Positions 1 to 19,359 are shown, numbered from the stretch's first letter. The stretch is DNA of 64,000 nt from Candidatus Nomurabacteria bacterium GW2011_GWC2_42_20 (GCA_000998425.1 LCDG01000002.1:35178-99177), one strand, 5' to 3'. Notes: generated by a model from the sequence alone, not told the origin. Translations and numbers: made by a program.

Positions 1-289
1 TTATCGTTGTTATTGTCGTTGTGGCCTTGTTCCCGTCTAGAGAGATGATTTCCTGCGCATCAATCGCGTCTAAATTCATTATGCGATACATGGCGTCTTC
101 GCTTCCTGCTTCAGAGAGGTAATACGCGCCTCTTGATCTTTCAAATTCGCGAACTGTTACATACTCGCGAACAACAGGGGATGACATACCTATCGCCACT
201 GTGACGGAAATAATTACAAAAAACATGACTGCAGTGATGAGGGCTGCTCCTCTGTTCTTTGATATAAATGAATTTATTTTGTGCTTCAT
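1..289 (-). CDS. PilX-like type IV pilus minor pilin, 5' part of a paralogous copy (gene runs off the window start)
   Basis: nt 1-310 align at about 85-90% identity with nt 1390-1700. ATG is at complement 287-289. The encoded N-terminus MKHKINSFISKNRGAALITAVMFFVIIS is a PilX_N-type hydrophobic segment. Confidence 0.5.
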   Translation of the reverse strand, partial: MKHKINSFISKNRGAALITAVMFFVIISVTVAIGMSSPVVREYVTVREFERSRGAYYLSEAGSEDAMYRIMNLDAIDAQEIISLDGNKATTTITTI

Positions 290-333
290 AAAATTAAGGA
301 TTGACTATCACACTCTCATCGTATCACGCATAA

Positions 334-1137
334 TTACTGACCCTCCTTCCAATCCTGTATTGTCCATGACCCACCAGGGCCAGATGTAAACAACGCATTT
401 TGTAGACCAGACTGATAGGTAATATTTGCACTGTTTGCAAGTGTAATTTTGTAGCCTGTAACCTCTCTCGCTGATGTGTTGTTCATTAGAAGGATGTCTC
501 CAAGTCGCGCGTATAAAATAACCTCACCGGTTGCGCCATCTTGCACCTCTATCGCTTCACTAATTGTTCCCAATGACGCGCCATTGTTTTCCGAAAGAAG
601 CATAATCCAAGAATTTACACCCGCGCCTTCAAAAACAGGGTTATCGTCTTTTACGTCTATAGTGCTGCTGTTAATTAGGTCACTTGGATTATCAGCAATC
701 ATCACCATGCTTAAGCCCTGTCCAGAAATGGAAGGGTCTACGCGTATAGTCAAATACCCCTCGATGTCTATATTCCCTTTAGCCCACACCGGTCCCATAA
801 GTGTAATAGTTGGAGCATCACCAGGGTCTAATGCTCCTTCAATAGACAGGTCACATTGTATTTCCACTGGACCTAGGTTTCGTGATGAGTTTATTATATA
901 TGTATACTCATACGTACCGTCCCCTTCAAGATGTGATGAGCATTCTGCTTGCGTAATCACCCCACCTGCTGTCGCAGCAGCCTCCCATGATTCTATTTGT
1001 GGACGTTGAATAGGGAGTTCTACTGGTGCTTGTGTCCCCCATGGGTAGGTGCATGAACCACGGTTTGAACCAGAGATTGTGTTACAGGTTACAGTAGTAC
1101 TTGCAATAATAGAGCTGTATATCTTGTTTGCATACAT
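334..1137 (-). CDS. hypothetical protein, possibly the C-terminal portion of the upstream PilX-like gene after a frameshift
   Basis: 267-aa ORF. Its start overlaps the stop of ORF 1089..1682 by 49 nt in the +1 frame, with a TAA 7 codons upstream of the ATG. No recognisable motifs. Confidence 0.35.
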   Translation of the reverse strand: MYANKIYSSIIASTTVTCNTISGSNRGSCTYPWGTQAPVELPIQRPQIESWEAAATAGGVITQAECSSHLEGDGTYEYTYIINSSRNLGPVEIQCDLSIEGALDPGDAPTITLMGPVWAKGNIDIEGYLTIRVDPSISGQGLSMVMIADNPSDLINSSTIDVKDDNPVFEGAGVNSWIMLLSENNGASLGTISEAIEVQDGATGEVILYARLGDILLMNNTSAREVTGYKITLANSANITYQSGLQNALFTSGPGGSWTIQDWKEGQ

Positions 1138-1682
1138 TGATGCAGTACCTCGATATTATCGGTAGCTGATGAGCCGTTGAGGCAGTTAGAGCCAGTCTTA
1201 CCACCTCCGCACACTGGACCAGTTGAGTACAGGTTGCCAGTGATTGAAGACGTAGAACTCATATACACACCACCATCACCTGCCTGCACTCCATAATTAA
1301 ACGATGCGCCACTTACTACCGTGAGTGTAGACTTCACACGACGAGTATTAAAAAGAATATCCCCGATTGAACCAATGGTCTTTTTTATTGCACTTATTGT
1401 TGTTATTGTCGTTGTGGCCTTGTTCCCGTCTAGAGAGATGACTTCCTGCGCATCAATCGCGTCTAAATTCATTATGCGATACATTGCGTCTTCGCTTCCT
1501 GCTTCAGAGAGGTAATACGCGCCTTTTGATTTTTCAAATTCCCTCACTGTCACATAGTCACGGAAAACTGAGGTTGATATCCCAGTCACCACCACAAGTG
1601 AAATAATTACAAAAAACATGACCGCCGTAATGAGGGCTGCCCCCCGTTTTTTTGCAAATAATGAATTTATTTTGTGTTTCAT
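1089..1682 (-). CDS. type IV pilus minor pilin, PilX-like N-terminal domain
   Basis: N-terminus ...KKRGAALITAVMFFVIISLVVVTGIST matches the PilX_N-type leader and hydrophobic helix. It lies at the distal end of the pseudopilin operon. Confidence 0.55.
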   Translation of the reverse strand: MKHKINSLFAKKRGAALITAVMFFVIISLVVVTGISTSVFRDYVTVREFEKSKGAYYLSEAGSEDAMYRIMNLDAIDAQEVISLDGNKATTTITTISAIKKTIGSIGDILFNTRRVKSTLTVVSGASFNYGVQAGDGGVYMSSTSSITGNLYSTGPVCGGGKTGSNCLNGSSATDNIEVLHQCMQTRYTALLLQVLL

Positions 1683-1693
1683 AAAATTAAGGA

Positions 1694-2224
1694 TTAATGT
1701 GCTGATCCACGCAATACTATTGTATCATAAAACTTTGTCGTCTTTATTAATTCTGACCGGGAGTCAGTGATTGTCATTTCTATCTTTACCGCCTTTGATT
1801 TTGGTGTTGTTATCGAGCGAAATACAAGATTTGTAAAAGTTACTCCCTTTGTCACAAGAGGCCCCTTTTCTACACCACCCTCTTTAAGCCTAAGCTGGTT
1901 TCCTGCATCCACGTAAAACTCCATAGTCGTATTGTTGCCACCTGAATCTTTTGTATTAAGGGTAAGTCTCCCAGGACTTGTACCAAAAGTACTCTGCGCC
2001 GAATCAATATCGTACGCATTACGGATTTCACGACCCATTCGCTCTAGCGCGACTGTAGCCGACTGGTTTAAGTTTTGAGTAAGACGCAGAGAGTAAAAAG
2101 ATTTCATCACCATAATGGTCGCATTCACAGCAAGAACTGAGAGTATAGTAAAAAATGCGACATAAATAATCATTTCAACGAGCGTGAATCCGGTGTGTTT
2201 GGAATGATGATTGTTGAATTTCAT
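1694..2224 (-). CDS. pseudopilin with prepilin-type N-terminal cleavage/methylation domain
   Basis: N-terminus ...KHTGFTLVEMIIYVAFFTILSV has G|FTLVE with E at +5. Confidence 0.65.
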   Translation of the reverse strand: MKFNNHHSKHTGFTLVEMIIYVAFFTILSVLAVNATIMVMKSFYSLRLTQNLNQSATVALERMGREIRNAYDIDSAQSTFGTSPGRLTLNTKDSGGNNTTMEFYVDAGNQLRLKEGGVEKGPLVTKGVTFTNLVFRSITTPKSKAVKIEMTITDSRSELIKTTKFYDTIVLRGSAH

Positions 2225-2225
2225 A

Positions 2226-2717
2226 TCAATTATTAAAAATATTTACTACATATGCCTTTACAGCGCGTGTTGTTGTCCCTGCAATAGGGCTACTCCAGGC
2301 TACTGACATTGTAACAAGCTTGATGTCGGGATCATATGTCCCAGAGGATGAAATATCACTGTTTGCGTCCCTCTTTACATCAGTAAGTGTGAATTTACGC
2401 TCAAACTTACCATCAATAAAAGTGTTTGTTGTCGTTGTTGCCCATGTTGTGCCATTCCATGTTAAATAATATGTAGTGGTTGTAGACATATTTTTAAAAT
2501 AATTTGTGTAACCAGTGTCACGAAAGAGCTTCATTGTTTCCATTCCCTCCTCAAGAAGATAGTCGCCTTGGACCAAGGATTGTGTAATGCCACTCGTACG
2601 CAATGTTGATTGAAAAAAATTTGATATACCCAATAGTGCCACCGAGAGAACAGCAGAACCGATGATCATTTCTATTAAACCGAAACCGCTGGTATAGATT
2701 TTTGTTTTATGATTCAT
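2226..2717 (-). CDS. pseudopilin (PilV-like) with prepilin-type N-terminal domain
   Basis: N-terminus ...SGFGLIEMIIGSAVLSVALLG. Confidence 0.65.
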   Translation of the reverse strand: MNHKTKIYTSGFGLIEMIIGSAVLSVALLGISNFFQSTLRTSGITQSLVQGDYLLEEGMETMKLFRDTGYTNYFKNMSTTTTYYLTWNGTTWATTTTNTFIDGKFERKFTLTDVKRDANSDISSSGTYDPDIKLVTMSVAWSSPIAGTTTRAVKAYVVNIFNN

Positions 2718-2725
2718 AGTTTTGT

Positions 2726-3220
2726 CTAATTGATCGTTACAATACCTGTTGGAAGAACCAATATTGTCGTACTCGATGTAGTGCCAACAACCAATAGAGT
2801 TGTTGTTGCATTTTGACTTGTTGCGCCAGTGATTTTTTCAAAAAGAAGCTCTGATCCGCCACCATTTATAACGATTGGTGACAAAATAACAGCAGTATCA
2901 AACACATGTTCCTCATTTGTAGTTGCACTAGGAGAATATGTATCACCCTGGAAAAGAACCACCTTCCCAGCCTCAAAATGAACCCCAAATTGATCATCAT
3001 ACTTTGACGATACAGAGAGTATGCGCGCTCGGTTAATTATAGAAACTAGCTCCTGCGATTCAGTGTTCAAAAGACTGCTTCGTCTAAAGTTTGTAAAAGA
3101 TGGCAGTATGGTCGCCAAAATAACCCCCATGATAGCTATCACAATCAGTAACTCGAGGGCGGTAAAACCACGACGAACCGAATATTGAATATTGAATGTT
3201 GAATGTTGAATTGCTGGCAT
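2726..3220 (-). CDS. pseudopilin (GspH/FimT-like) with prepilin-type N-terminal domain
   Basis: ...VRRGFTALELLIVIAIMGV. Start preferred at Met14 (complement 3218-3220) because of the upstream AGGAAGTTGAAATG RBS. The longest ORF extends to 3259. Confidence 0.6.
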   Translation of the reverse strand: MPAIQHSTFNIQYSVRRGFTALELLIVIAIMGVILATILPSFTNFRRSSLLNTESQELVSIINRARILSVSSKYDDQFGVHFEAGKVVLFQGDTYSPSATTNEEHVFDTAVILSPIVINGGGSELLFEKITGATSQNATTTLLVVGTTSSTTILVLPTGIVTIN

Positions 3221-3275
3221 TTCAACTTCCTGTCTTGTATTTTTTATTCTATATTCCATATTCTATATTCTACAC

Positions 3276-4496
3276 TTAAATATTGCTCATTACTGAATAC
3301 ATTGGAGAGATCATCGATATCGCAAAAAATCCAACCGCGCCTCCAATGAACACCATAAGGAGCGGTTCAATAACAGTAGACATGTTTTTTGTCGCCTCAC
3401 TAACCTCATTTTCATAAAACAGAGCGAGATTAAGCAACATCTCTGAAAGCTTGCCTGTCTCCTCGCCAACTTCAACCATGTCACCAACCAATAACGGGTA
3501 AATATCATTTCCCATAAATGATGATGAAAGTGGTTTACCTTTTTGTACACTCTCGGCTGCGACATTCATCACCTCTTTATAGTATGAATTTTGCAAAACA
3601 TCCTTCGTTATATTTATTGCCTCTACCATATCAACACCAGAAGCAAGAAGCGACGACAATGTGCGCGCAGTACGAGCAGAATTTGATTGACGAACAAGGT
3701 CTCCAACAACTGGCAAACGAAATGACACCTTTTCAAAAGCTCGACGTCCACCCTTTGTACGAAGAAGCATTATAAAGGCGGTAATAATGCCAATGATCCC
3801 AACGATTCCCAACAAAAGGTTGTTTGTAAGAAAATCAGAGATCCACATAATAATCTTTGTGCTTGTCGGGAGCTCTGTGTTCAGCTCTTTAAATGTTGCA
3901 GCGAGGGTAGGCACGACATAAATGAACATCAGCACACCAATGATAAAGAGTGTTGCAATAACCACCGTAGGGTATATCAGCGCGCCTTTTATTTTCTTCT
4001 TCAATAAGTAGCTCTTTTCAAGCTGGTCTCCGATAACAAGAAGTGATTCTGAAAGTCCACCAGACTCCTCTCCTGCGCGAACCATTGAAACAAAGATTGG
4101 TGAAAAAACTTTTGGGAATTTTGCCATTCCAGCAGAAAGCGTTGACCCCTTGCCAATCTCATCAATCAGAGTTTTTAACGTTTTTTTGAGGGCTGGATTT
4201 TTTGTTTGTCGTTCTTGAATAGATATACCACGAGACAACGACAGCCCTGCTTTCATCATTGAGCTTAGGTTGTGCGCAAATACGATTAACTCTTGTACCT
4301 TTACACGAGAGAGTTTCTCGTTTATCGTGTCCATGTTTATGTTAAAAGTAAGTCCAGTTTTTACTTCCTCTACCGATATCACTGTTTTGCCAGCGCTTCT
4401 CAAATCAGCAGCAACAGTAAAACGATCTGCGCCTTCAACCTCTCCTGTTGCGTCTTCGCCGGATAGTTCTCGTACTTTATATTTAAATTTTGCCAT
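3276..4496 (-). CDS. pilC: type IV pilus assembly platform protein PilC (GspF family)
   Basis: 406 aa. Two T2SSF-like repeats and three TM segments. Sits directly downstream of the PilB ATPase. Confidence 0.85.
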   Translation of the reverse strand: MAKFKYKVRELSGEDATGEVEGADRFTVAADLRSAGKTVISVEEVKTGLTFNINMDTINEKLSRVKVQELIVFAHNLSSMMKAGLSLSRGISIQERQTKNPALKKTLKTLIDEIGKGSTLSAGMAKFPKVFSPIFVSMVRAGEESGGLSESLLVIGDQLEKSYLLKKKIKGALIYPTVVIATLFIIGVLMFIYVVPTLAATFKELNTELPTSTKIIMWISDFLTNNLLLGIVGIIGIITAFIMLLRTKGGRRAFEKVSFRLPVVGDLVRQSNSARTARTLSSLLASGVDMVEAINITKDVLQNSYYKEVMNVAAESVQKGKPLSSSFMGNDIYPLLVGDMVEVGEETGKLSEMLLNLALFYENEVSEATKNMSTVIEPLLMVFIGGAVGFFAISMISPMYSVMSNI

Positions 4497-4604
4497 TGTT
4501 CTTAATAGTATACCAACAAAAAAGTTTGGCGACTAGAAGAATTGATAAATTCAACCAACGGCTCATTCCCGCCAATTTGAGCCTTGGATTCCGGCACACA
4601 TCCT

Positions 4605-4718
4605 CAGAGCGAGCTAAATTGCTTTTTAGGGGGTTGTGAGTGTGTCGACACGAAACAGTTCAGACTTTTTAAAGCTTCAAAAAAGTCGTACCCTAAAAAG
4701 CAATTTAGCGAGCGTCCC
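4605..4718. promoter_or_regulatory. 19-bp perfect inverted repeat (GCTAAATTGCTTTTTAGGG / CCCTAAAAAGCAATTTAGC) enclosing ~60 nt in the pilB-pilC spacer
   Basis: Read directly from the sequence. The loop contains a 10-bp palindrome GTGTCGACAC and an A/T-rich hairpin gacttttt...aaaaagtc. Confidence 0.5.
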
Positions 4719-6467
4719 TTACTCCGACACCACGCGAAGCACCTCCTCTATCGTCGTAACTCCCTGCATTGATTTTATGATTCCATCTTCAAGCATCGTT
4801 GTCATACCCTCCTTCTTTGCCTGAACCTCGATCTCTGTGGCTGTGGCACCTTTAATAATGAGCTCGCGTATAGCTGGCGACATTTTCATTACTTCATGAA
4901 TACCGACGCGTCCCTTGTACCCATCCTCGCTCTCTGAAGATTTTTTAGGGCGATAAAAAGGCACGTCTTTCCATTCATCTGTTGGCGCTATAAGTTTTTC
5001 TTCTTTCAAAACATTTATTATCCGGTCTAGGTCTACGGATTTCCCCAGTATTTCAACCTCTTCCTGACTCAGAAAATATTTTTCTTTTACACTGCAAAGG
5101 CGTCGCACGAGACGCTGCCCAATAATTACATTAACTGTTGAGACAATAAGAAATGCCTCTATGTCCATATCAAGAAGGCGTGGCATTGTTGCAGCAGCTG
5201 AGTTGGTGTGCAGTGTCGAAAGCACGAGATGCCCTGTGAGTGCCGCATTGACTGCAAGAGATGCAGTTTCTGTATCACGGATTTCGCCGACCATAATAAT
5301 GTCTGGGTCTTGACGGACAAGAGAACGAAGTCCATTCGCAAAAGTAAGCCCGATTTCTGATTTAACTTGCGTTTGGTTAACGCGAGTCATTTGATATTCA
5401 ATAGGATCTTCAATTGTAGATATGTTCACGTCTGGTGTGTTTAAAATATCCAAAATCGTATACAACGTTGTAGTCTTACCAGAGCCGGTGGGCCCAGTTG
5501 TTAATATCATTCCAACTCGCTGTTTTGTCGCTTCATAAATACGCTCAAGTCCAAGACCGTGAAAACCGAGACTTTCTAGAGAAAAGCCAGACACTGATTC
5601 TCGGAGAAGACGCATAACTGTTTTTTCCCCAAAATAAACTGGTAATATAGACACACGAAATGCGACCTTTTCACCAGCGGATTCTATTTTAAAACGTCCG
5701 TCTTGTGGGAGTCGCTTTTCATCAAGTTTAAGATTTGCTAGAACCTTGATGCGCGCGACGATGCCAGACGCAGCAGTTTTTGGAAGCGTCATTGCATCAT
5801 GCAGGAGACCGTCGATACGATAGCGAATAACCACCTGCGTGTCCAATGGTTCAATATGAATATCAGAAGCACCTTGTGTAATAGCATGACTCAATAGTGA
5901 ATCTACTATTTTTACAACAGGTAGATCCTCAGCAAGTTTTTTCAGATCATCCTCACTTTGAGGTTCCGCACCGGCTGTAGCTGCTTTTAGTGTGCCTGAT
6001 TCTTTTTCAATAATATCGCCGAACTCGGCCTTTAGGCTCCTTTGATATTGCAAGAGCATTCCTTTAATTGATTCTTCGTCAGTAAGTCTTGGGAGAATTT
6101 TTAATCCGACTTTCTTTTTAACAAAATCTATCGCGGTAAGGTCATCTGTATCGAGCATCGCAACCTCGAGGGCTGTAGGTGTCTTCTTGAATGCGATAAT
6201 ATTATGCTTTCTCGCAATTGGTTCAGGGATAAGAGAAAGGACATCAAACTCAACCTTCTGAGTTTTCAGATTAACAAACGGGATACCAAGAATATACGCT
6301 TCAGTACGACGAAGGTCATCATCAGAAAGTTTCCCTTCGGAAACAAGCATATCACCAAGGTATGTCTTCTTTTCTTCAGCTCGTTTTGCAACTTCATCTA
6401 GTTCCGTGCGTGGCACAAGCCCAGAGTCTGCAATAAAATCTTTAAGTTGTTTGTTGTTGACGGTCAT
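4719..6467 (-). CDS. pilB: type IV pilus assembly ATPase PilB (GspE family)
   Basis: 582 aa. Walker A GPTGSGKTT, Asp/His boxes, and an N-terminal GSPII_E_N-like domain. Confidence 0.9.
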   Translation of the reverse strand: MTVNNKQLKDFIADSGLVPRTELDEVAKRAEEKKTYLGDMLVSEGKLSDDDLRRTEAYILGIPFVNLKTQKVEFDVLSLIPEPIARKHNIIAFKKTPTALEVAMLDTDDLTAIDFVKKKVGLKILPRLTDEESIKGMLLQYQRSLKAEFGDIIEKESGTLKAATAGAEPQSEDDLKKLAEDLPVVKIVDSLLSHAITQGASDIHIEPLDTQVVIRYRIDGLLHDAMTLPKTAASGIVARIKVLANLKLDEKRLPQDGRFKIESAGEKVAFRVSILPVYFGEKTVMRLLRESVSGFSLESLGFHGLGLERIYEATKQRVGMILTTGPTGSGKTTTLYTILDILNTPDVNISTIEDPIEYQMTRVNQTQVKSEIGLTFANGLRSLVRQDPDIIMVGEIRDTETASLAVNAALTGHLVLSTLHTNSAAATMPRLLDMDIEAFLIVSTVNVIIGQRLVRRLCSVKEKYFLSQEEVEILGKSVDLDRIINVLKEEKLIAPTDEWKDVPFYRPKKSSESEDGYKGRVGIHEVMKMSPAIRELIIKGATATEIEVQAKKEGMTTMLEDGIIKSMQGVTTIEEVLRVVSE

Positions 6468-6616
6468 GAAGGTTAATGGAATTTAGGATTACAAATTAGT
6501 ATCATAATTTTCTAAATTCTATATTCTACCAATCTAGTATAGCAAATATATTAATACATAGCTGTGTAAAACTAAAAAGAAAAGGCGACATCACTGTCGC
6601 CTTTGTTTATTTATTT

Positions 6617-6874
6617 TTAGTGGTGCGGTTCGATATACTCAACTGCAACCACTGAGCTAGTGTGAATACTGCCCAGCATCATCCTATGCCCGAGCTCGAG
6701 GTATACATCGCGCCCAGTGACGCTTTCATCAACTGAAACCCGCTTGGATGGCTTTATTGTTTCAATTTTTGTGGCTTTGTATAAAACGACACCTCCATCG
6801 CAAATTGGCTCAACTCTGTATACAGAGTTTTTTGTATGGACATTCATTGGTTCAACAACCTTTATGCGTGCCAT
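6617..6874 (-). CDS. hypothetical small protein
   Basis: 85-aa ORF, no recognised motif. Confidence 0.3.
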   Translation of the reverse strand: MARIKVVEPMNVHTKNSVYRVEPICDGGVVLYKATKIETIKPSKRVSVDESVTGRDVYLELGHRMMLGSIHTSSVVAVEYIEPHH

Positions 6875-7036
6875 AATAATCCTCCTATTTTCAAATATTT
6901 AAAAATAACAAATAAATTTCTAAATTCAACATACAATACTTCTCACAAAGTACCACTTTTAAAAATAAAGTCAAGTTTGACATACTGTAATGATTTAGTA
7001 TAGTGAGTGGGTTAATGTCCGTCCCGAAAGCGGGCT

Positions 7037-7160
7037 TTTTTATTAGCGACGCAGACGAATTAGCAAATTCGCGTCTTGGACGAAGATGAAACAGAAAGTA
7101 ATCACTTTCTCATTTCCGAGCCGACACGTAAGTCAATTTGCTAATTGAGGAGCTAATATT
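7037..7160 (+). repeat. intergenic repeat element, copy A (family ttttATTAGCGACGyAGA...TTCCGAGCCGA...)
   Basis: About 85% identical to the reverse complement of 61059..61180. Shares its 5' module with 55986..56147. Follows a hairpin plus T-run at 7017..7042. Confidence 0.6.
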
Positions 7161-7192
7161 TATTAATATTAGAAAAATCACCAGAAAATATC

Positions 7193-8491
7193 ATGTTAGA
7201 CTTAAAAACACTAGGGTCAGCACTTGAACAACTCGAATCAGAGCGTGGCATTCCTCGTGCAAAAATTATCGAGGCAATAGAGCAAGCTCTCGCGGCGGCA
7301 TATAAAAAAGACTTCGGTAAAAAGGGTCAAATAGTGCGCGCTGTTTTTGATATAAATTCTGGCAAGACAGAGTTCATCCAGGTCAAAATCGTTGTTGACG
7401 AGCAAGCAGTACGCATGCCAGAAGACACAGACGAGGAAGCGGATGCAAAAGAAAAAGCTCTCAACGCAAATGTTTCAGAAGGTGAGGAAATTTCACTACG
7501 ACGGTTCAGTCCTGAACACGATATTCTCCTTGCAGATGCTCGCAGGATCAAGCGTGATGCTGTTTCTGGTGATGAGGTAATTTTCCCACTTGAAGCGCAA
7601 GAGGACTATGGCCGCATTGCAGCGCAGACTGCAAAACAGGTGATTATTCAGCGTATTCGCGAGGCAGAGAAAGTGTCTATTGTTGGCGAGTATGGTGGAA
7701 AGGTTGGCGATATAGTACAAGGATCCGTGCAGAGAATGGAGCGTGGTAACATTTTTGTTGACCTAGGAAAGACAACAGGTCTCCTTGCATACGAAGATCA
7801 GATTCCTAGCGAAAGATACAAGCAGGGCGAACGTATTAGCGCATATTTATACAAGGTTGAAGAAACTCCACGTGGAATAGATGTACGCCTTTCTAGAGCG
7901 CATCCAAAGATGATTGAAAAACTCTTTGCCCAAGAAGCGCCAGAGGTTGCAACGGGAACTGTACAGATAAAAGCGGTTGCCAGAGAGGCTGGATCACGCG
8001 CAAAAGTTGCGGTGGCTTCAAGCGACGAGCATATCGACCCGATTGGCTCATGTGTTGGACAGCGCGGAGTTCGTGTTTCAACTGTGATGAGCGAGCTTGG
8101 TGGTGAAAAAATTGACCTCATTGTATGGTCAGAAGATGCAAAAAAGTTTATTGAGGACTCGCTTTCCCCAGCACAGGTTCAGTCAGTTGTACTCGACGAA
8201 GAGAAACACCAAGCAACCGTAGCAGTTTCTGCCGACCAGCAATCACTTGCTATTGGTCGTGGAGGTCAAAACGTGCGTCTTGCTGCAAAGCTCACTGGGT
8301 GGAAGCTCGATATCGTTGGTCTTCCTGGTGAAATTGTAGCAGAAGCGACAGCAGACGGCGCGGTTACTATCGAAAAGGCAACTCCTGAATCAGCAGACGG
8401 GTCAGCAGAGCCGCTTCTGGAAGCACGTCTGGACGCTGAAGGACTTAGGGTTGTAGAAGAAGGAGCAAATGCCCCTACAGATGCGGAGTAA
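7193..8491 (+). CDS. nusA: transcription termination/antitermination factor NusA
   Basis: N-terminus MLDLK...LEQLESERGIP. S1 and KH regions. C-terminal extension. Confidence 0.9.
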   Translation: MLDLKTLGSALEQLESERGIPRAKIIEAIEQALAAAYKKDFGKKGQIVRAVFDINSGKTEFIQVKIVVDEQAVRMPEDTDEEADAKEKALNANVSEGEEISLRRFSPEHDILLADARRIKRDAVSGDEVIFPLEAQEDYGRIAAQTAKQVIIQRIREAEKVSIVGEYGGKVGDIVQGSVQRMERGNIFVDLGKTTGLLAYEDQIPSERYKQGERISAYLYKVEETPRGIDVRLSRAHPKMIEKLFAQEAPEVATGTVQIKAVAREAGSRAKVAVASSDEHIDPIGSCVGQRGVRVSTVMSELGGEKIDLIVWSEDAKKFIEDSLSPAQVQSVVLDEEKHQATVAVSADQQSLAIGRGGQNVRLAAKLTGWKLDIVGLPGEIVAEATADGAVTIEKATPESADGSAEPLLEARLDAEGLRVVEEGANAPTDAE

Positions 8492-8515
8492 TTATTCATT
8501 TTAATTCAACCCCCT

Positions 8516-9052
8516 ATGAAAATGAACTTATGGCACGATGTTTCTCTTGGTGAAAACGCTCCTGAGGAAATTAATGTAATAGTTGAGATACCAAAAGGCT
8601 CAAAGAACAAGTACGAGATTGACAAGGAGACAGGCCTCATCGCTCTCGATCGCGCTCTTCACACAGCGCAGGACTACCCTTTTGATTATGGGTTTGTACC
8701 ACAAACACTATGGGACGATGGAGACGCCCTCGATGTGGTGTTGCTCACGACATACCCACTGTACCCCGGTATCCTTGTAAACGCTCGCCCTGTTGCCATT
8801 ATGCATATGACAGACTCTGGTGAAGGCGACGATAAGGTTATTGCCGTGCCTGTAGGTGATCCACGCTGGTCGGATGTAAAAGACCTAGCGGACATCAACA
8901 AGCACACACTCAAGGAAATGGAACATTTCTTCACAACCTATAAAAAGATTCAAAATAAGGTAGTTGAGGTCTCTGGATTTGATGGAGTAAGGGAAGCGCG
9001 CGAAGCTGTTACGAAGAGTATTAATTTGTACAAAAAAGAGTTTAGTAAGTAG
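8516..9052 (+). CDS. ppa: inorganic pyrophosphatase
   Basis: 178 aa with family I PPase motifs (DYPFDYGFVPQT, DGDALDVVLL). Confidence 0.9.
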   Translation: MKMNLWHDVSLGENAPEEINVIVEIPKGSKNKYEIDKETGLIALDRALHTAQDYPFDYGFVPQTLWDDGDALDVVLLTTYPLYPGILVNARPVAIMHMTDSGEGDDKVIAVPVGDPRWSDVKDLADINKHTLKEMEHFFTTYKKIQNKVVEVSGFDGVREAREAVTKSINLYKKEFSK

Positions 9053-9060
9053 GAATAGGT

Positions 9061-9097
9061 AAAGCCCCAACCGTTCGGCCGAACGGTTGGGGCTTTA
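9061..9097. terminator. perfect stem-loop terminator
   Basis: aaagccccaaccgttcggccgaacggttggggcttt. Confidence 0.6.
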
Positions 9098-9215
9098 CCT
9101 ATATACACCTCCTTCTATTGTATAGAGGAACAGCCTCTTATATACTATATAGGCGTATGGGAGAATTGTTTAGATTATTAGTAAGCCATATACTGTGGCA
9201 TTTTAAAATAGAATT

Positions 9216-10172
9216 ATGAATAAAAAGATTAACATCGCGCTTATCGCACTCATGGCATTCAGCGCGGGAGCAGTAAGCGCAGAAACAAATAGTGATGCCG
9301 TTGTCTGTACAGCAGACGCAAAAGTATGCCCTGATGGGACATCCGTTGGTAGAACAGGTCCAAACTGTGAATTTGTTTGCGGTTGGACAACAGCAGGTAC
9401 AATAACCAGCAACATTCCAACATTCACCGCAGAGGATAAAATGCGTGGGTGGTACTACGGTGACAAGAATCAAAGGAAGCCAGGCACCCCAGAAAATTGG
9501 CTAGTTCGCAACGCAGGAACACGAAGCGCACAGTGGTATTATCCGGGATTTACATCAACAAAACCAATTGATACTACCAATTTGCCACAAAAGCCAGCGA
9601 TTGGAGTTCCTCCAATCCCCCGCCCAGAAATCCGTAAGGATGGCATAAATAATCGCGAAGAAATGGAGTCGCGCGCAAAAGCTCTCCGTGCTTCAACAAC
9701 AGCTGCTAACCAAAAAATAAAGGACGTGGCGCAGAAAAAGCGTATTGAAGTAGCGCGCAAGCAAACTGAGATTGTAAACAAGCGTTTGGAAGCAGCAATA
9801 GATCGTGTACAAAAACTTTCTGACCGTGTTTCAGAAAAGCTAAATAGCCTCGAAAAAGAAGGCGTTGATGTAAGTGTTTCACGTTCGCATATCGCAGATG
9901 CAAAAACGAAACTTGATGAAGCTCGCATAAAAGCAGCTACCTTAAAACTCACAATTGAAACAGCATTCGCAAATGTAATAGCAAATGTATCGTCAACCAC
10001 AACACTAGGCACCGCACCCAAAAATGCTATGAAGGATGTTCAGGAAGCCGTAAAAGAAGTTGCGAAGGTAATTCAAGAAGCTCACAAGCATGTTGCTCTC
10101 TCTATTTCAACAGTAAAGCCTGGCCAGAACAAGCCTCGCCCAGCAGCCACAAGCGCAACAACTACTCAGTAG
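9216..10172 (+). CDS. secreted protein with signal peptide, Cys-rich N-terminal region and coiled-coil C-terminus
   Basis: MNKKINIALIALMAFSAGAVSAE signal peptide. Function unknown. Confidence 0.5.
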   Translation: MNKKINIALIALMAFSAGAVSAETNSDAVVCTADAKVCPDGTSVGRTGPNCEFVCGWTTAGTITSNIPTFTAEDKMRGWYYGDKNQRKPGTPENWLVRNAGTRSAQWYYPGFTSTKPIDTTNLPQKPAIGVPPIPRPEIRKDGINNREEMESRAKALRASTTAANQKIKDVAQKKRIEVARKQTEIVNKRLEAAIDRVQKLSDRVSEKLNSLEKEGVDVSVSRSHIADAKTKLDEARIKAATLKLTIETAFANVIANVSSTTTLGTAPKNAMKDVQEAVKEVAKVIQEAHKHVALSISTVKPGQNKPRPAATSATTTQ

Positions 10173-10202
10173 GAATTATTAGCTGAACTAATAAACACAA
10201 AT

Positions 10203-10496
10203 ATGGACCAGAATACTAACAATGGTGCGCAAATGCCAGAAAAAAAATCTACTGGCGTAGTCATAAGTATAATTATCATTGTACTTGTTCTTGCATACGG
10301 CGCATTCTATTTCTCAAAGCAAGTTCCTTTGCCGACAGAAAAGGAGGTCTTAGCTCCGTCAGAAATACAAGTAGACCAAACAATATCCTCCCTATCTAAA
10401 CAAGGTACATCTACAGACCTTGCAGACATTCAGAGAGATCTCGAGGCAACAGATTTCTCAGGGCTTGATGCTGGGCTAAGCGACATCGCAATCTAA
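10203..10496 (+). CDS. small single-pass membrane protein, hypothetical
   Basis: One TM helix (VVISIIIIVLVLAYGAFYF), followed by a terminator. Confidence 0.4.
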   Translation: MDQNTNNGAQMPEKKSTGVVISIIIIVLVLAYGAFYFSKQVPLPTEKEVLAPSEIQVDQTISSLSKQGTSTDLADIQRDLEATDFSGLDAGLSDIAI

Positions 10497-10513
10497 CAAT
10501 CTCTCCTCTCCTA

Positions 10514-10546
10514 AAGGGCGACGACCAAATGGTCGTCGCCCTTTTT
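10514..10546 (+). terminator. rho-independent terminator
   Basis: agggcgacgaccaaatggtcgtcgcccttttt. Confidence 0.65.
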
Positions 10547-10584
10547 GTTGCAGAAACCAAGTAAACATAGTATCCTAAGCGCCT

Positions 10585-11601
10585 ATGACTGACATTAAAA
10601 CAACATTAAAAGAATTACCAGATAGCCTTGTAGAAATTACATGCGAAATTTCTGCTGAGTCGTTCGAAAAGGAGCGCCCAATTGCTTTGAAAAAGGTTGG
10701 TGAGGAGATTTCTTTGCCAGGGTTCCGCAAAGGGCACGTGCCTGAATCAATGATCGCCCAGAAATTTGGTGAGGCTTTCATTCTTGAAGAGATGGCAAAC
10801 CTTGCTATGGATAGAGCGTACAGCGAGATTTTAGGTCGCCACAAAATTCACGCAATAGCTATGCCTACAGTACAGGTAAAAAAACTTGCAAAAGGTAATC
10901 CTTTTGAATTCACTCTTACATTTCAGGTAATGCCGGAAATAAAACTCCCTGATTATAAAGCGATTGCAAAAGAAATAATGGCTGTTGAGGAAACAACTGT
11001 TGTCGAAGACAGTGAAGTTGAGCAAGCATTGAACGAGCTCCGCAAACAGTTTGCAACCAAGAATGATGCAGGAGATGAGGTACTTCCAGAAGTTACAGAT
11101 GAGCTTGCGCAAAAGTTTGGACCATTCGCAAATGTAGATGAGTTTAAGGCAAAAATTCACGAATCAATAGCGCACGAAAAGACGACTCGCGCGCGCGAAA
11201 AGAAACGTATGCAAGTAATGGAGAAAATTGCTGATGGGATTACCGCAAAACTTCCTCAGGTGCTCATTGAGGGCGAGCTTGAGAGAATGATTGGCCAATT
11301 CAAACATGATGTAGAACAAATGGGGATGAAGTTTGAAGACTACCTAGCAACAACAAAAAAGACTATTGAGGAAATGCGCAAGGAATGGACTGCTGACGCG
11401 GAGAAACGCGCCAAGGTACAAATTGCTCTAAACGAAATCTCTCTTCTAGAAAAAATCGAGGTTCTCAAAGATGACTTGGAGCGTGAATCAAAATTCTTTA
11501 TGGACAAATACAAGGACGCCGACCCAGGCCGTGTACGTATGCATCTAGAAATGATGCTCGCGAATGAGAAAGTCTTCCAGTTCCTAGAGTCACAAAAGTA
11601 G
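10585..11601 (+). CDS. tig: trigger factor, short form (N-terminal ribosome-binding and C-terminal chaperone domains; PPIase domain apparently absent)
   Basis: GFRKGHVP signature motif. 338 aa, compared with ~430 aa for canonical trigger factor. Confidence 0.75.
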   Translation: MTDIKTTLKELPDSLVEITCEISAESFEKERPIALKKVGEEISLPGFRKGHVPESMIAQKFGEAFILEEMANLAMDRAYSEILGRHKIHAIAMPTVQVKKLAKGNPFEFTLTFQVMPEIKLPDYKAIAKEIMAVEETTVVEDSEVEQALNELRKQFATKNDAGDEVLPEVTDELAQKFGPFANVDEFKAKIHESIAHEKTTRAREKKRMQVMEKIADGITAKLPQVLIEGELERMIGQFKHDVEQMGMKFEDYLATTKKTIEEMRKEWTADAEKRAKVQIALNEISLLEKIEVLKDDLERESKFFMDKYKDADPGRVRMHLEMMLANEKVFQFLESQK

Positions 11602-11605
11602 CCAA

Positions 11606-11638
11606 CAAAAACCCTAAATTTGGTGATTTAGGGTTTTT
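11606..11638 (+). terminator. rho-independent terminator
   Basis: aaaaaccctaaatttggtgatttagggttttt. Confidence 0.65.
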
Positions 11639-11708
11639 GTTGGCTTGCATTTTTTCTAAAAGTATGGTATAAGTATGGTTGTTCCAACAATTATAGGAGT
11701 TCTTTATT

Positions 11709-11891
11709 ATGAAGGCCAAAATTAATGATTTCCCAATCCTTATATCAGAAGAGGACATCCCAGATGAAGTTACCTGCGAAGAAGCAGCTGAGCGAAAGCG
11801 TCAGATTCTGCAATTTGGACGCGATTTCAAGCAGACGCTAGGCCGAGCAGTCGTCGACGCAAACCCAAGTATTTTCGACAAAGTGCACTAA
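11709..11891 (+). CDS. hypothetical small protein
   Basis: 60-aa ORF followed by hairpin aagccgaccagttcttggtcggcttttt (11913..11942). Confidence 0.3.
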   Translation: MKAKINDFPILISEEDIPDEVTCEEAAERKRQILQFGRDFKQTLGRAVVDANPSIFDKVH

Positions 11892-11964
11892 AAAGCGTCT
11901 ATCCGATGACACAAAAGCCGACCAGTTCTTGGTCGGCTTTTTACTTTTGAGTAGCAAGATTTAC

Positions 11965-12486
11965 TTATCGACTCCCTTGGGCGTGTTTCAACGCATCTTC
12001 TGGAGTCTCCCCAGATGCGATAACATTCTCTGTTTTATCAACAGCGACATACACATCTTTCACTCCATTCTTTGCTGAAGCCCTCTCTTTTATCCATTCG
12101 CTAAAAGGCACGTTGCTCTCGCGCACCATATTAATCTCAGCATCAGTCAAACGATACCCATTGCGCACATAGTAAACAGATTGAATAGCCTCGTCCGACA
12201 TCGCCTTAAGCTGTTCGTCGCCGATTTTTCCTATATGCTCCATACGATCCACATACGCCCCTAAAATGATAGACTTTGTGGAAACAGGCGTGTCAGCATT
12301 TGCTGCCAAATATGCTGCGCGATTTCTCACAGCGTCAAAGTCCTCTGGGGTTATAATGTCGCCCTCATTTACAACGTTTCCTGAAGCTAGCATGTCACGG
12401 ATTTCTGCATTTCCTAATTCGTTAACTTCCTCAATAGCAGGATTTTCTTGAGTATTATTCGCACCAAAATTTTCTAATCTGTTCAT
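11965..12486 (-). CDS. hypothetical protein
   Basis: 173-aa ORF, acidic, no recognised motif. Confidence 0.4.
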   Translation of the reverse strand: MNRLENFGANNTQENPAIEEVNELGNAEIRDMLASGNVVNEGDIITPEDFDAVRNRAAYLAANADTPVSTKSIILGAYVDRMEHIGKIGDEQLKAMSDEAIQSVYYVRNGYRLTDAEINMVRESNVPFSEWIKERASAKNGVKDVYVAVDKTENVIASGETPEDALKHAQGSR

Positions 12487-12521
12487 ATGCTCATTATATA
12501 CAAAAAATACTTAAAATAAAA

Positions 12522-13208
12522 TTAAATGATTGCTAACGCAAGTGCGACAATGGCGGCCGTTTCTGCGCGGAGGATTTGAGTGCCGGTTGTGACAATTGGG
12601 ATGTTCCTCGAGTGAAACGATTCAATCTCGGCATCAGTGAAACCTCCTTCGGGGCCGATGAGGAGTGAGACGGGAGCAGTAGTGTGCTCTGTGAAATACT
12701 CCCGCGCAGAAATTTGTCCGCGTGGGTCAAACACAACAACTCCGTCTGGGATTTTTTCAACAGAAATAATCTCGCTTATTGCTGGCACTGTTGCGCGCCC
12801 AGACTGCTCCGATGCTTCACGCAAAATCTTTTGCGCGCGTTCATAGTTCACACCCTTTTTCTCGCTACGGGCCGCTTGTACAGGGACAATACGTGATACA
12901 CCAAGCTCTGTTGCCTTTTCTAATACCATTTCAAAATTTTCTTTCTTAATGAGCGCAATGTAGAGCGTCATCTCGCGCGCAGGTACGAGACCTTTATTTG
13001 TTTCAAGCACTTTGAGTAACGCATTCTTTTTTGACAGTGAAACAAATTCACAGAGTGATTCGCTCCCATCACCATTAAAAAGAATAGCGCTGCTTCCCTC
13101 TTCCATACGCAAAACATTCCGCCATTGGTTGAGTAACGTTTCATTCGTAACAGAAAACTCACCACTTGCAGGAATTTTATTTTCAACAAAAAATCTATGT
13201 AATCGCAT
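12522..13208 (-). CDS. rsmE: 16S rRNA (uracil1498-N3)-methyltransferase RsmE
   Basis: C-terminal LLIGPEGGFTDAEIE motif. Start chosen at MRLHRFFV; the ORF track extends to 13253. Confidence 0.75.
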   Translation of the reverse strand: MRLHRFFVENKIPASGEFSVTNETLLNQWRNVLRMEEGSSAILFNGDGSESLCEFVSLSKKNALLKVLETNKGLVPAREMTLYIALIKKENFEMVLEKATELGVSRIVPVQAARSEKKGVNYERAQKILREASEQSGRATVPAISEIISVEKIPDGVVVFDPRGQISAREYFTEHTTAPVSLLIGPEGGFTDAEIESFHSRNIPIVTTGTQILRAETAAIVALALAII

Positions 13209-13280
13209 ATTTACAGTATGCACAAACATCCTGGATGGTGCAAACCTTGCCACTAAACAAAATTATGCTAGTATGACCTT

Positions 13281-13877
13281 ATGTCATATTTAATTCCAAC
13301 TGTTATTGAAAAGTCATCGTCTGGCGAGCGCGCCTACGATATTTATTCACGCCTTCTAAAGGAGCGTATTATTTTCCTTTCTGGGGCAATCGATGACGAT
13401 ACGGCAAATATCACCATCGCTCAACTTCTTTTTCTTGAATCTGAGGATCCAAAGAAGGATATTTATTTGTACATTAACTCCCCTGGCGGATCGGTTTCAG
13501 CGGGAATGGCGCTTTACGACACCATGCAACACGTTAAGCCAGATGTTTCCACTATTTGTGTTGGAATGGCAGCATCGATGGGGGCGGTGCTTCTCTCTGC
13601 TGGTGCAAAGGGAAAGCGCTTCATTCTCCCAAACGCAGAGGTTATGATTCACCAGCCACTTGGCGGTACCGAGGGACAAGCGTCAGATATTGCCATCACC
13701 GCAAAACACATTTTGAAAATTAAGGAGAATCTAAACAAAATTCTCTCAAAAAATACTGGCAAGCCGCTCACACAAGTAGAAAAAGACACGGATCGTGACT
13801 TTTTTATGTCAGCAGATGAAGCAAAAAAGTATGGATTAGTAGACGAGATTTACAAACCAAAGAATCCTCGAGCATAA
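13281..13877 (+). CDS. clpP: ATP-dependent Clp protease proteolytic subunit
   Basis: [18 protein letters not shown]...[19 protein letters not shown] is the canonical ClpP sequence. Confidence 0.9.
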
Positions 13878-13887
13878 CAAAACAAAA

Positions 13888-13928
13888 ATCACCCAGCCTA
13901 ACTATTAGGCTGGGTGATTTTTGTTTTG
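13888..13928 (+). terminator. rho-independent terminator
   Basis: aaaatcacccagcctaactattaggctgggtgattttt. Confidence 0.65.
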
Positions 13929-14149
13929 TTATGCTTGTGCTGAAGGTTAAAAGTGTAAATTTGAAAGGTAGCCTAGAAACCAGACGGTTTCTAGGCCTTA
14001 ACCTTACAGACCATCGGCTTTATGGACTTTTGACTTGTTTAAGAGTATTCTAAAAGTGTTCTTACTTTAAATTTAAATTGACACATTTTATTGGCATTAG
14101 TATCCGACGATACGAAGGAAACACCTAAGGTTTCCAAGGATTTTCGGAC

Positions 14150-15688
14150 TTGCATATGGATATTAACATTGCACTCACGCTTGGTGGCGTGATGGCAATC
14201 CTAGTCGGTGCGGCACTCGGCTACCTCTTGCGCTGGTTCGTTGCAGTTTCAAAGCGTGGTTCTGTCGAGCTCGAAGTAAAACAGGTGCTTCTGTCTGCAA
14301 AAGAAGAAGCGCAAAAAATCATTGAGGAGGCCGACAGGAGAGCCGAAGTATATGGGAGAGAGCTCCATGAGGAAGAGCGAGAGCAAAATGAGCGATTCAA
14401 AAAGCTTGAGGAACGATTGCTCAAAAAGGAGGAATTCTTGGACAAAAGACAAGCAGATATAGATGATGAAATTTCCCACATAAAGGAAAAGGCTGACGAA
14501 CTGAAAATTATTCGCGATAAAACAATCAAAGAAAACGAGTTGGCGCAACGCGAACTTGAACGCGTAGCACACCTTGGAGAGGAGTCTGCTAAGGAGGAGC
14601 TTCTGAAACGTGTAGAAAAGCGATACGAGGAGGATATCCTGAATAGGATTAAAAAGCTTGAAGCTGATGGTGAAGACAGACTAGCGCGCACAGCGCGAGA
14701 TATTCTTGCTACTTCTATCCAGCGACTCGCAACGTCAACTGCCTCAGAAATGATGGTGACCTCTGTACAAATCGCTTCAGACGAAATAAAAGGAAAGATA
14801 ATCGGAAAGGAGGGCAGAAATATACGTGCTTTTGAACGTGCAGCTGGGGTTGAAGTCATTATCGATGACACCCCTGGATCAATTGTTATTTCGTCTTTTG
14901 ACCCAATTCGTCGACAAATCGCGCGCGTGGCGCTAGAAGCATTAATAGAGGACGGCAGGATACAGCCTGCAAAAATAGAGGAAGCTGTGGAAAAGGCGCG
15001 TGAAGAAGTGAACAAAATTACAAAAGAAAAGGGGGAGCAAGCTGCGTATGAGTGTGGTGTGTTCAACCTTGACCCGCGAATTATTGCAATTCTTGGGCGT
15101 TTACATTTCCGTACAAGCTACGGCCAGAATGTCCTGCAACACTCCGTAGAAATGGCGCATATTGCTGGAATGATAGCAGAAGAGATTGGCGCAAATGTTG
15201 CTATTGCAAAAGCTGGCGCACTCCTCCACGATTTAGGAAAGGCGATAGACCATGAGGTTGAAGGCACACACGTAGAAATAGGCCGCAAGATTATGCAAAA
15301 ATTTGACGTCGACAAGCGTATCATTCAGGCCATGCAATCACACCATGAAGAATATCCTTATGAAACACTTGAATCCATCATAGTGCAAACGGCAGACGCA
15401 ATTTCCGGAGGTAGACCAGGTGCGCGTAGAGATTCAGCAGAAAACTACCTAAAGCGTCTTGAAGACCTGGAAGGCATAGCAAAATCCTTCCAGGCGGTCG
15501 AAAAAACATACGCAATACAAGCAGGAAGAGAGCTTCGTGTGTTTGTGAAACCAGAAAAAATCACCGACCTTGAATCAAAATCACTTGCGCGGGACATAGC
15601 TATCCGCATTGAAAAGGAGCTTAAATATCCGGGTGAAATCAAGGTTGCTGTCATTCGAGAATCACGAGCAATCGAGTACGCAAGGTAG
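14150..15688 (+). CDS. rny: ribonuclease Y
   Basis: N-terminal TM helix, long coiled coil, KH domain (IGKEGRNIRAFE), and HD domain (LLHDLGK...). Confidence 0.9.
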   Translation: MHMDINIALTLGGVMAILVGAALGYLLRWFVAVSKRGSVELEVKQVLLSAKEEAQKIIEEADRRAEVYGRELHEEEREQNERFKKLEERLLKKEEFLDKRQADIDDEISHIKEKADELKIIRDKTIKENELAQRELERVAHLGEESAKEELLKRVEKRYEEDILNRIKKLEADGEDRLARTARDILATSIQRLATSTASEMMVTSVQIASDEIKGKIIGKEGRNIRAFERAAGVEVIIDDTPGSIVISSFDPIRRQIARVALEALIEDGRIQPAKIEEAVEKAREEVNKITKEKGEQAAYECGVFNLDPRIIAILGRLHFRTSYGQNVLQHSVEMAHIAGMIAEEIGANVAIAKAGALLHDLGKAIDHEVEGTHVEIGRKIMQKFDVDKRIIQAMQSHHEEYPYETLESIIVQTADAISGGRPGARRDSAENYLKRLEDLEGIAKSFQAVEKTYAIQAGRELRVFVKPEKITDLESKSLARDIAIRIEKELKYPGEIKVAVIRESRAIEYAR

Positions 15689-15927
15689 CGATTTGTGCAG
15701 AAATTAAGCAACATGCTTCGAATTCTAGCAATATTCCGAACTATCCTTGTATCTATTGCGTAAAAAAACCTAGGGGGGTATACTATTTAGTAAGGAGGTC
15801 TGACCCGCACCGTGTGGGGAAACTCCCCTTTCGCTATGTAATACGTAACGTGGCAAAAGGTTAGTTGCGGGTGAGAAACTCGTTTTAGTATTAAAAGAAT
15901 TAACAGAAAGCGCTAATAAAAAACATT

Positions 15928-16203
15928 ATGAACAAAGCAGCTATCGCTGAAATTATTCACGAAAGGATGGGTGGAACAAAGGTATCAGCAGAGCAAACAC
16001 TTGATGCAATCCTCGAGGCTATGGTAAGTACTCTAAAGAGCGGTGATGAAGTATCAATTGCAGGCCTCGGCATCTTTTCAGTAAAACCTCGCGCAGCTCG
16101 CACAGCTCGCAACCCAAAGACTGGTGAGTCTATCCAGGTAAAGGCAACAAAAGTTCCAAAGTTCCGCGCAGCAAAGGCGCTCAAGGATGCAGTAGCAAAA
16201 TAA
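15928..16203 (+). CDS. hup: DNA-binding protein HU
   Basis: 91 aa. GLGIFSVKPRAARTARNPKTGE is the HU beta-arm signature. Confidence 0.9.
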   Translation: MNKAAIAEIIHERMGGTKVSAEQTLDAILEAMVSTLKSGDEVSIAGLGIFSVKPRAARTARNPKTGESIQVKATKVPKFRAAKALKDAVAK

Positions 16204-16223
16204 GCTATTTGATCTTTCAAATA

Positions 16224-16266
16224 AAAACCACCCAGCCACTCTAGAGTGGCTGGGTGGGTTTTATTT
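16224..16266. terminator. stem-loop terminator
   Basis: aaaaaccacccagccactctagagtggctgggtgggtttt. Confidence 0.65.
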
Positions 16267-16273
16267 GAAAGAG

Positions 16274-16344
16274 TGCGGGATGGGAGAATCGAACTCCCGA
16301 TTTCAGTTTGGAAAACTGAAGTTATACCATTTAACTAATCCCGC
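16274..16344 (-). tRNA. tRNA-Trp (anticodon CCA)
   Basis: Cloverleaf folded by hand: acceptor stem GCGGGAT/ATCCCGC, T-arm GGGAGTTCGATTCTCCC, anticodon loop tTCCAaa. No 3' CCA encoded. Confidence 0.8.
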
Positions 16345-16407
16345 GATTAGAATGACAATAACAAAAAAAGCTTATTTTAGCAATTACTAAATAAATTATT
16401 GTGGTGT

Positions 16408-17301: not shown

Positions 17302-17325
17302 TATATTACAATGCTCGCAATTTTA

Positions 17326-19269: not shown

Positions 19270-19359
19270 TTCACTTTACAGTATACACTATTAATAAAAA
19301 AAGTAATCACTGATCTGTGGAAAAGTATTTTTAATTTCATTACGACACGATTGCAGGTT

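Follow-up and report, generated by a model that had tools for sequence, protein, structure and literature searches.

Why does one short heptameric motif recur beside the type IV pilus genes, between rpmH and rnpA, and at other gene boundaries of an uncultivated bacterium, and at what level might it act? To our knowledge almost nothing is known about the control of gene expression in uncultivated CPR/Patescibacteria, and a literature search returned no paper on such elements in CPR bacteria. Here we describe the motif in a 64,000-nucleotide stretch of DNA from Candidatus Nomurabacteria bacterium GW2011_GWC2_42_20 (hereafter the window), which matches contigs of the Rifle aquifer groundwater metagenome and three NCBI assemblies (e.g. 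GCA_000999475.1), and whose closest named relatives are Candidatus Yonathbacteria of the Parcubacteria/Paceibacteria group (CPR). A first, sequence-only reading had noted heptamer arrays at several sites and proposed a promoter or regulator-binding array that the pilus operon would have in common with other genes. Our analyses instead favor gene-boundary RNA stem-loops that would act post-transcriptionally, with the 7-nt period as a signature of slippage, a reading that could as readily prove wrong as right and in which transcription, folding and any effect on mRNA are predicted from the DNA.

Inverted heptamer arrays at five gene boundaries

The five strings quoted in the sequence-only reading were all recovered at their coordinates, and their recurrence is real and non-random. 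Within the 64-kb window TTCNATATTC has 13 matches against 0.68 expected, a count reached in none of 100 shuffles; a three-unit heptamer pattern has 15 matches against 0.03 expected; and GAATNTNGAAT has 19 against 0.95 expected, 18 of which fall within five loci. Tandem Repeats Finder reports period-7 arrays at these five loci only (2.4-4.7 copies each), and a custom scan of the window gave 8 arrays with at least three heptamer units. On one strand the unit that repeats reads GAATNTN. What had been seen is only half of each site, the other half being an inverted array (3177-3211, 6470-6500, 34197-34218, 57561-57600 and 49465-49492), such that every site is an imperfect palindrome of the form 5'-(GAATNTN)n, loop, (NANATTC)n-3', with 3-5 heptamer units per arm. 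The TTCCACC said to end the arrays is present, but read as its reverse complement it belongs to a G-rich 5' boundary, GG(Y)(R)GAAT, located immediately after the stop codon on the coding strand.

Gene identities around the sites were confirmed by Pfam. Site A lies on the minus strand, downstream of pilC (T2SSF; 3276-4496, stop codon 3276-3278), and extends into a prepilin gene (2726-3217 or 2726-3259, depending on which of two candidate starts is taken). Its 5' arm (3243-3275; coding strand GTGTAGAATATAGAATATGGAATATAGAATAAA) directly follows the pilC stop and holds an in-frame ATG at 3259-3257; its A-rich loop (3212-3242) carries an SD-like AGGAAG and a second in-frame ATG at 3217-3215; and its 3' arm (3177-3211), made of 4.6 copies of ATTCAAC/ATTCAAT, falls in the prepilin leader codons (..PAIQHSTFNIQYSVRRG↓FTALE, the arrow marking cleavage). 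This 3' arm has no stop in any of the three frames, and codon 3169-3167 supplies the G of the cleavage motif. Site B (6470-6530, minus strand) is a predicted 5'-UTR hairpin of pilB (4719-6467), with 5' arm GGTAGAATATAGAATTTAGAAAAT, a loop at ~6501-6506 and 3' arm TAATTTGTAATCCTAAATTCCATTAACC, which terminates 2 nt ahead of the pilB ATG (6467). Site C (34197-34282, not assigned to a strand) separates the convergent ComM-like (32656-34200, stop at 34200) and M23/LysM peptidase (34283-35554, stop at 34283) genes, its heptamer arms (34197-34218 and 34252-34282) enclosing a GC-rich terminator core with a T-run (34219-34253). Site D (57561-57650, minus strand) is the whole spacer between rpmH (57651-57788, stop codon 57653-57651) and rnpA (57189-57560, ATG at 57560), with the 5' arm at ~57612-57650, the apical loop at ~57601-57611 and the 3' arm at 57561-57600. 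Site E (49411-49492, plus strand) has a 5' arm (49411-49447) that overlaps the TAG stop of a 228-aa ORF and a 3' arm at 49465-49492, and is followed at ~49494-49501 by a -10-like box, GGTATAAT, ahead of a PrgI-like gene (49587-50042).

Sites A and D thus span the interval from a stop codon to the next start within operons, site A running from the pilC stop into the prepilin leader, while sites C and E lie at gene 3' ends, C between convergent genes. Stops are found in all three frames of the GAAT arms and in no frame of the ATTC arms of sites A and D, as would be expected if the upstream arm is placed behind a stop codon and the downstream arm adjoins or runs into the ORF that follows. All five loci are gene-boundary loci, and the sole reach into leader codons is one arm of site A; the earlier suggestion of a non-random cis-element family common to the pilus operon and other genes is upheld, and its members always lie at gene boundaries. 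The nearby ComM-like and pilus genes also brought to mind a DNA-uptake sequence, which was rejected because the motif is rare, is confined to the five gene-boundary loci and has a unit sequence that changes between close lineages.

Two further features of these regions were recorded. A 25-nt motif, TTAGCAAATTCNCNCNTGGCGCTAT, at 49553-49577 in the leader of the PrgI-like (type-IV-secretion-like) gene recurs in another species (related loci L135/L138, 3975-3999) inside the loop of a pilB 5' hairpin, with zero chance matches expected. GC content falls to ~32% at 58000-62000, a stretch holding dnaA-dnaN with a 230-nt dnaA-dnaN spacer, against ~43% elsewhere, and is a plausible origin region.

Folding, promoters and prepilin leaders

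As palindromes at gene boundaries, the five sites look like transcript stem-loops and not like a shared promoter. Their predicted stem-loops range from -14 to -36 kcal/mol, with site C reaching -36.3 kcal/mol (z -4.7) and the other four sites giving modest z-scores against dinucleotide shuffles (-1.0 to -2.0). RNAalifold applied to five rpmH-rnpA orthologues returned one compensatory pair and a positive covariation term, with a pairing register that is ambiguous in the repeats. In a strand-asymmetry test based on G·U pairs, sense and antisense folding energies were indistinguishable (6 against 8); both strands fold equally well, and RNA is thus not singled out over DNA as the acting molecule. 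An Rfam search of the window gave no family match to the elements and only four tRNAs above the gathering threshold, and a permissive search of sites A and D gave nothing credible.

The elements share with intrinsic terminators the position of a stem-loop right after a stop codon, and site C encloses a true GC-stem and T-run terminator. They differ in that their stems are AU-rich and mismatched, and canonical Rho-independent termination was rejected as a general identity, since sites A, B, D and E lack a T-run and only the core of site C qualifies; a terminator scan of positions 1-20000 listed no site at A or B. Ordinary GC-stem and T-run terminators are present elsewhere in the window, which indicates that the elements are a separate class. 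At 13852-13926 a 24-nt tandem repeat (2.1 copies) overlaps with a long, perfect palindrome that resembles a bidirectional terminator and is located after clpP.

We propose that the elements would be transcribed and would fold into AU-rich stem-loops serving as 5'-terminal, intercistronic or 3' stabilizing or processing structures, and that they may also couple the translation of adjacent genes. The hairpin would be the property maintained, the 7-nt period would be the mark of slipped-strand expansion, and the arms would be kept alike by selection for pairing and/or by template switching from arm to arm. The inverted arrays at all five sites, the RNase Y encoded in the window and the paucity of SD sites speak for stem-loops, while the modest z-scores, the scant covariation and the lack of a strand difference in folding energy are the weak points of this reading.

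The original promoter idea, extended so that the TAGAAT units are -10 hexamers and TAGAAT-N7-ATG launches a leaderless pilin mRNA, draws on the expression signals of the host. An SD-like motif is found in only 6 of the 58 genes of the window, and a TAnnnT hexamer ends exactly 6 nt before the start codon in 13 of the 58, often with a TGn extension (gene starts surveyed include those of 11965-12486, 13281-13877, 39005-40948, 40985-41782 and 56158-56886), which suggests that leaderless mRNAs may be widespread in the source genome. The typical promoters of this genome are of the TGnTAnnnT type. In keeping with the promoter idea, boxes of the TAG type (TAGTAT, TAGAGT) occur at other genes, TAGAAT-N7-ATG is found in 7 of 13 pilin junctions, where the ATG is often the sole in-frame start, and a promoter scan at pilB also reads TTGCTA-18-TAGAAT. 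As a general explanation, however, the idea fails, and we consider it decidedly unlikely. Because the elements are palindromic, a -10 reading would place face-to-face promoters at every site; site C is convergent and surrounds a canonical terminator; read as promoter arrays, C, D and E lack a downstream ORF, and no ORF begins within the 5' arm of D or E; the units are without the TGn extension, reading GGTAGAAT instead of TGnTAnnnT; and the units of other lineages contain no TAnnnT at all. Furthermore, the pilB element kept in three species is an extended -10 upstream of the array, TGCTATACT (6544-6536, minus strand), which lies 6-7 nt before the array and is conserved as TGCTATACT or TGCTATAAT in L138 and L137 (L-numbers denote related loci, of which a metagenome scan with PilC gave 80), whereas the TTGCTA-18-TAGAAT spacing is kept in neither. 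With the predicted pilB transcript start at ~6529, the first base of the array, this conserved -10 implies that the array would begin the transcript and not drive its transcription. The likeness of TAGAAT-N7-ATG to the TAnnnT-N6-ATG geometry of the host is the part of the proposal that stands, and on this basis the arrays may serve as local promoters at pilin genes.

The pilin junctions also bear on what site A encodes. The array at 3246-3275 had been placed upstream of the pseudopilin start, which is probably not simply so, as an in-frame ATG (3259) lies inside it and its partner array lies within leader codons; ATG 3259 and ATG 3217 are both candidate starts of the window prepilin. Upstream of the G↓F(T/G)xxE cleavage motif, all 13 of the 13 pilin junctions keep the pilin frame free of stops over 90-255 nt, while the other two frames average ~2.5 stops each. 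It would follow that translation runs through the element and yields a long prepilin leader, and that selection acts on the elements, at least at pilin junctions. A single in-frame ATG is found in 9 of the junctions, mostly inside the 5' arm (GAAT ATG GAA TAT AGA ATA, read as MEYRI...), and in other pilins the ATG stands directly ahead of the 3' arm (e.g. MKFNIQYSIFNIQHSTRRG↓FT). Leaders among 117 orthologues are mostly 8-10 aa long, with a subset of 15-62 aa that carry repeats of the IQYSTFNIQHS or PNSKFQIPNS type. Judged from these reading frames, the arrays are absorbed into the cleavable leader-coding region of prepilins: the element would be embedded in the leader-peptide coding sequence, with the ATTC arm and often the whole element translated, lengthening the leader from ~8 aa to 15-60 aa, and such an insertion would be tolerated since the leader is cut off by prepilin peptidase. 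A consequence for annotation is that prepilin starts are ambiguous in such genomes, the 7-nt arrays being translated into leaders of this length. The layout of site A, with AGGAAG and ATG 3217 in the loop, resembles that of L224, where a near-perfect hairpin of -44.7 kcal/mol presents a strong SD and an ATG in its loop. Should pilin transcripts instead begin at the ATG in the 5' arm, a hairpin would lie over the start codon, an arrangement that is usually inhibitory and would count against the stem-loop reading.

Arrays whose unit length is not divisible by three, set between the start codon and the mature part of surface-exposed pilins (site A and 12 related junctions) and varying in unit type and copy number between species, might also form a phase-variation switch, in which gain or loss of 7-nt units in the prepilin leader would shift the frame and turn pilins on or off in the manner of the phase-variation repeats of Neisseria opa (CTCTT) and H. 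influenzae hmw. We regard this as very improbable. Alignments totaling 862 kb between assemblies that share at least 95% identity (10 over sites A and B; 7 over site D, 4 of which reach site E) revealed no indel with a length of 7 nt or any multiple of it, in consensus sequences that would mask minority variants; all 13 pilin junctions are in frame, with no out-of-frame alleles; and the same elements occur at rpmH-rnpA and between convergent genes, where switching would be senseless. A length difference of another kind is found at 1150/1151, where the window is without 64 nt carried by 9 of the 10 other assemblies checked, splitting a 470-aa ORF into ORFs of 197 and 267 aa; LCGC01 (L210) differs from the window by just 5 nt here, and an ~85% identical copy lies just downstream, which makes recombination or mis-assembly between paralogues likely.

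Heptamer units and pairing among relatives

Among the related loci, GAAT-type arrays occur only where PilC identity is at least 63% and are essentially absent below this level. They occupy the same junctions as in the window, often before each successive pilin gene (L133, L137) and also before pilB (L137, L138), and their polarity is invariant in this clade (17 GAAT-then-ATTC clusters, none reversed). Orthologues of the rpmH-rnpA element can be recognized in relatives with RnpA identity as low as 59%, and L222 has inverted AAAGTCT-type heptamers, as a pair, in its place. Other heptamers likewise appear at like positions, in pilin leaders and in the rpmH-rnpA spacer, namely (AAAAGTC)4, (TTCGACT)3, (AATTTTC)4 and AAAGTCT-type inverted pairs (L130/L144, 7215-7260; L132; L173, 7209 and 8719; L222, ~9870-9990). 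In more distant Parcubacteria, with PilC ~50% identical, the same architecture is built from the units AATTTCT, AAGTCGA, AGCTTTT, AATTTTC and AAAAGTC, and the elements often begin just after a TATAAT box (e.g. L165, L170) or fill a stop-to-start gap (pilB-pilC). The window and 86 related loci together contain 112 arrays of period 7, compared with 3 of period 8 and 2 of period 9; an inverted partner lies within 160 nt of 42 of the 102 non-redundant arrays, against 2 in a reversed-sequence control; and 79 of the 102 are at gene boundaries, with the remainder mostly in pilin leaders. The type-IV-secretion-like operon of L220 contains an inserted gene (8731-9081) from the family of 23S rRNA intervening-sequence proteins (PF05635).

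The period and the self-complementarity are therefore kept while the sequence is not, which argues against one shared sequence-specific regulator and makes pairing the likely object of maintenance, with the 7-nt period left as a signature of mutation. A single genome may even hold several unit families that do not pair with one another: the hairpins of L165 have own-arm pairing energies of -28, -18 and -27 kcal/mol, with cross-pairing no better than -10. Such a variety of units is not what a single shared regulator site would lead one to expect. In a broader form of the idea, a DNA- or RNA-binding protein (S1, a cold-shock protein or a repeat binder) could recognize the arrays as tandem sites and control transcription or SD-independent translation. 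The five window elements do belong to one unit family whose arms cross-pair between sites, the arrays lie right against start codons in a genome with few SD sites, and the same proposal has been made for the TAACTGA repeats of Beggiatoaceae and the TTTTGAA repeats of Nostoc (PMC4679880; bioRxiv 10.1101/2022.06.06.494920). Such a platform nevertheless sits poorly with the unrelated unit families of one related genome, each matching only its inverted partner, and we give it little credence; no candidate binding protein was found, and the neighboring regulators have no DNA-binding domain detectable by Pfam, the response regulator consisting of two receiver domains only and the other protein being a DksA/TraR zinc finger of the RNAP-binding type. 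The two-receiver response regulator, which has no output domain, adjoins a HAMP histidine kinase (16408-17301 and 17326-19269), and the pair is flanked by tRNA genes at 16273-16344 and 20436-20507.

A more general challenge to any function is that the arrays are a neutral by-product, with slippage arrays gathering in unconstrained sequence (spacers and disposable leader codons) and template switching copying the arms. According to the summary of Mrazek (2007) given in PMC4679880, no long simple-sequence repeats are commoner in prokaryotes than heptanucleotide ones, which are put down to polymerase slippage. The units differ freely between lineages, 23 of 40 GAAT-type clusters are unpaired, site E is missing in L219, and the structural statistics described above are weak. 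We nonetheless find neutrality unlikely, if easier to credit than a protein platform. These genomes are streamlined with very short spacers; the elements have a precise stop-to-start extent, or a start just after a -10 box, and a fixed polarity; and the open frame at all 13 pilin junctions shows selection at least there. The rpmH-rnpA element also persists at one junction while dnaA synonymous sites are near saturation: spacer identity is 0.72 between orthologues, 0.62 between non-orthologous elements and 0.54 in shuffled sequence, with dnaA four-fold sites at 0.36-0.62. Since repeats and low-complexity sequence align easily and inflate identity, these values lend weak support to a possible constraint on the spacer.

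Known heptamer repeats and wider meaning

In general, the feature belongs with heptamer simple-sequence repeats and REP-like palindromes, and what is unusual about it is the paired-array architecture and the translation as a prepilin leader. The heptanucleotide repeats of cyanobacteria (STRR arrays), of Nostoc and of Beggiatoaceae are likewise tandem 7-nt units in 3-6 copies, overwhelmingly intergenic and often beside start codons, in hosts that are also SD-poor. The TTTTGAA/TTCAAAA repeats of Nostoc PCC 7120, noted near start codons (bioRxiv 10.1101/2022.06.06.494920), are built on a rotation of GAATTTT, and (GAATTTT)n arrays were found in many Nostocales among the matches listed in our own scan. 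Unlike these repeats, the window arrays occur in inverted pairs of fixed polarity that form a hairpin, whereas the Beggiatoaceae TAACTGA repeats comprise 169 direct sets and only one 'indirect' set (MacGregor 2015, PMC4679880). Moreover, the window units are degenerate (GAATNTN) and not exact, some are translated as a prepilin leader, and comparison of consensus assemblies showed no length instability of the arrays between close strains.

The nearest experimentally studied analogue is the hairpin of hmw1A in H. influenzae, where a heptamer repeat is one arm of a functional 5'-UTR hairpin cut by RNase III (Rapun-Araiz 2025, PMC12721329). There, too, one arm of a long hairpin at the 5' end, ahead of a gene for a surface structure, is made of transcribed 7-nt repeats (transcription of the window elements being predicted), and it is the hairpin, and not the DNA repeat as such, that controls expression, as we propose here. 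The two systems differ in that hmw1A pairs one repeat arm with a G-rich region, while in the window both arms are repeats; in addition, the hmw1A repeat number is highly polymorphic and drives phase variation (PMC12721329), and no polymorphism was found in the window or its relatives.

REP/BIME elements resemble the window elements as short, imperfect palindromes between genes and at the 3' ends of operons that are recurrent and lineage specific, and they are thought to act as mRNA stem-loops. REP arms, in contrast, are not tandem repeats and REPs are spread by RAYT transposases, while the window elements stay and diversify at orthologous junctions and one of them overlaps coding sequence. No Y1 (IS200/IS605-like, RAYT) transposase was detected among the 40 window ORFs scanned with Pfam or in the Pfam annotation of the dnaA-T4SS region, and this result and the retention of elements at orthologous junctions make REP/RAYT mobility improbable. 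Binding sites of the TRAP or HutP type are repeats of UAG/GAG triplets, and these were rejected, the conserved core here being GAAT at a 7-nt period.

Beyond the Parcubacteria, a cross-phylum scan for (GAATNTN)3GAAT, with one genome per species, gave at least 120 loci, and the matches listed include Nostocales, Bacteroidota, Acidobacteriota, Planctomycetota, Elusimicrobia and other Patescibacteria. Among these listed matches, 36 of 121 arrays (~30%) have an inverted partner, against 3 in the control, and both polarities occur. An Elusimicrobia MAG (L116), from an unrelated groundwater phylum, carries two GAAT-heptamer hairpins (808-900 and 5854-5960) very like those of the window, one lying immediately upstream of an AGGAG SD and ATG and one matched on both strands.

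We raise, as a tentative and rather unlikely idea, that inverted heptamer arrays are a widespread and so far undescribed class of gene-boundary RNA in SD-poor bacteria (Parcubacteria, Cyanobacteria and Bacteroidota). If so, lineage-specific 7-nt 'alphabets' would build self-matching stem-loops that set mRNA stability or the translation of neighboring genes, and in Parcubacteria they would have come to lie in the cleavable prepilin leader, which would thereby act as a 5' UTR that is translated in otherwise leaderless pilin mRNAs. The pairing of such arrays into hairpins, which recurs in phyla unrelated to this one, gives a fresh approach to the long-standing question of the role of bacterial heptamer repeats, and a structured element at the junctions of type IV pilus, type-IV-secretion-like and rpmH-rnpA genes is a candidate for post-transcriptional control in these bacteria.
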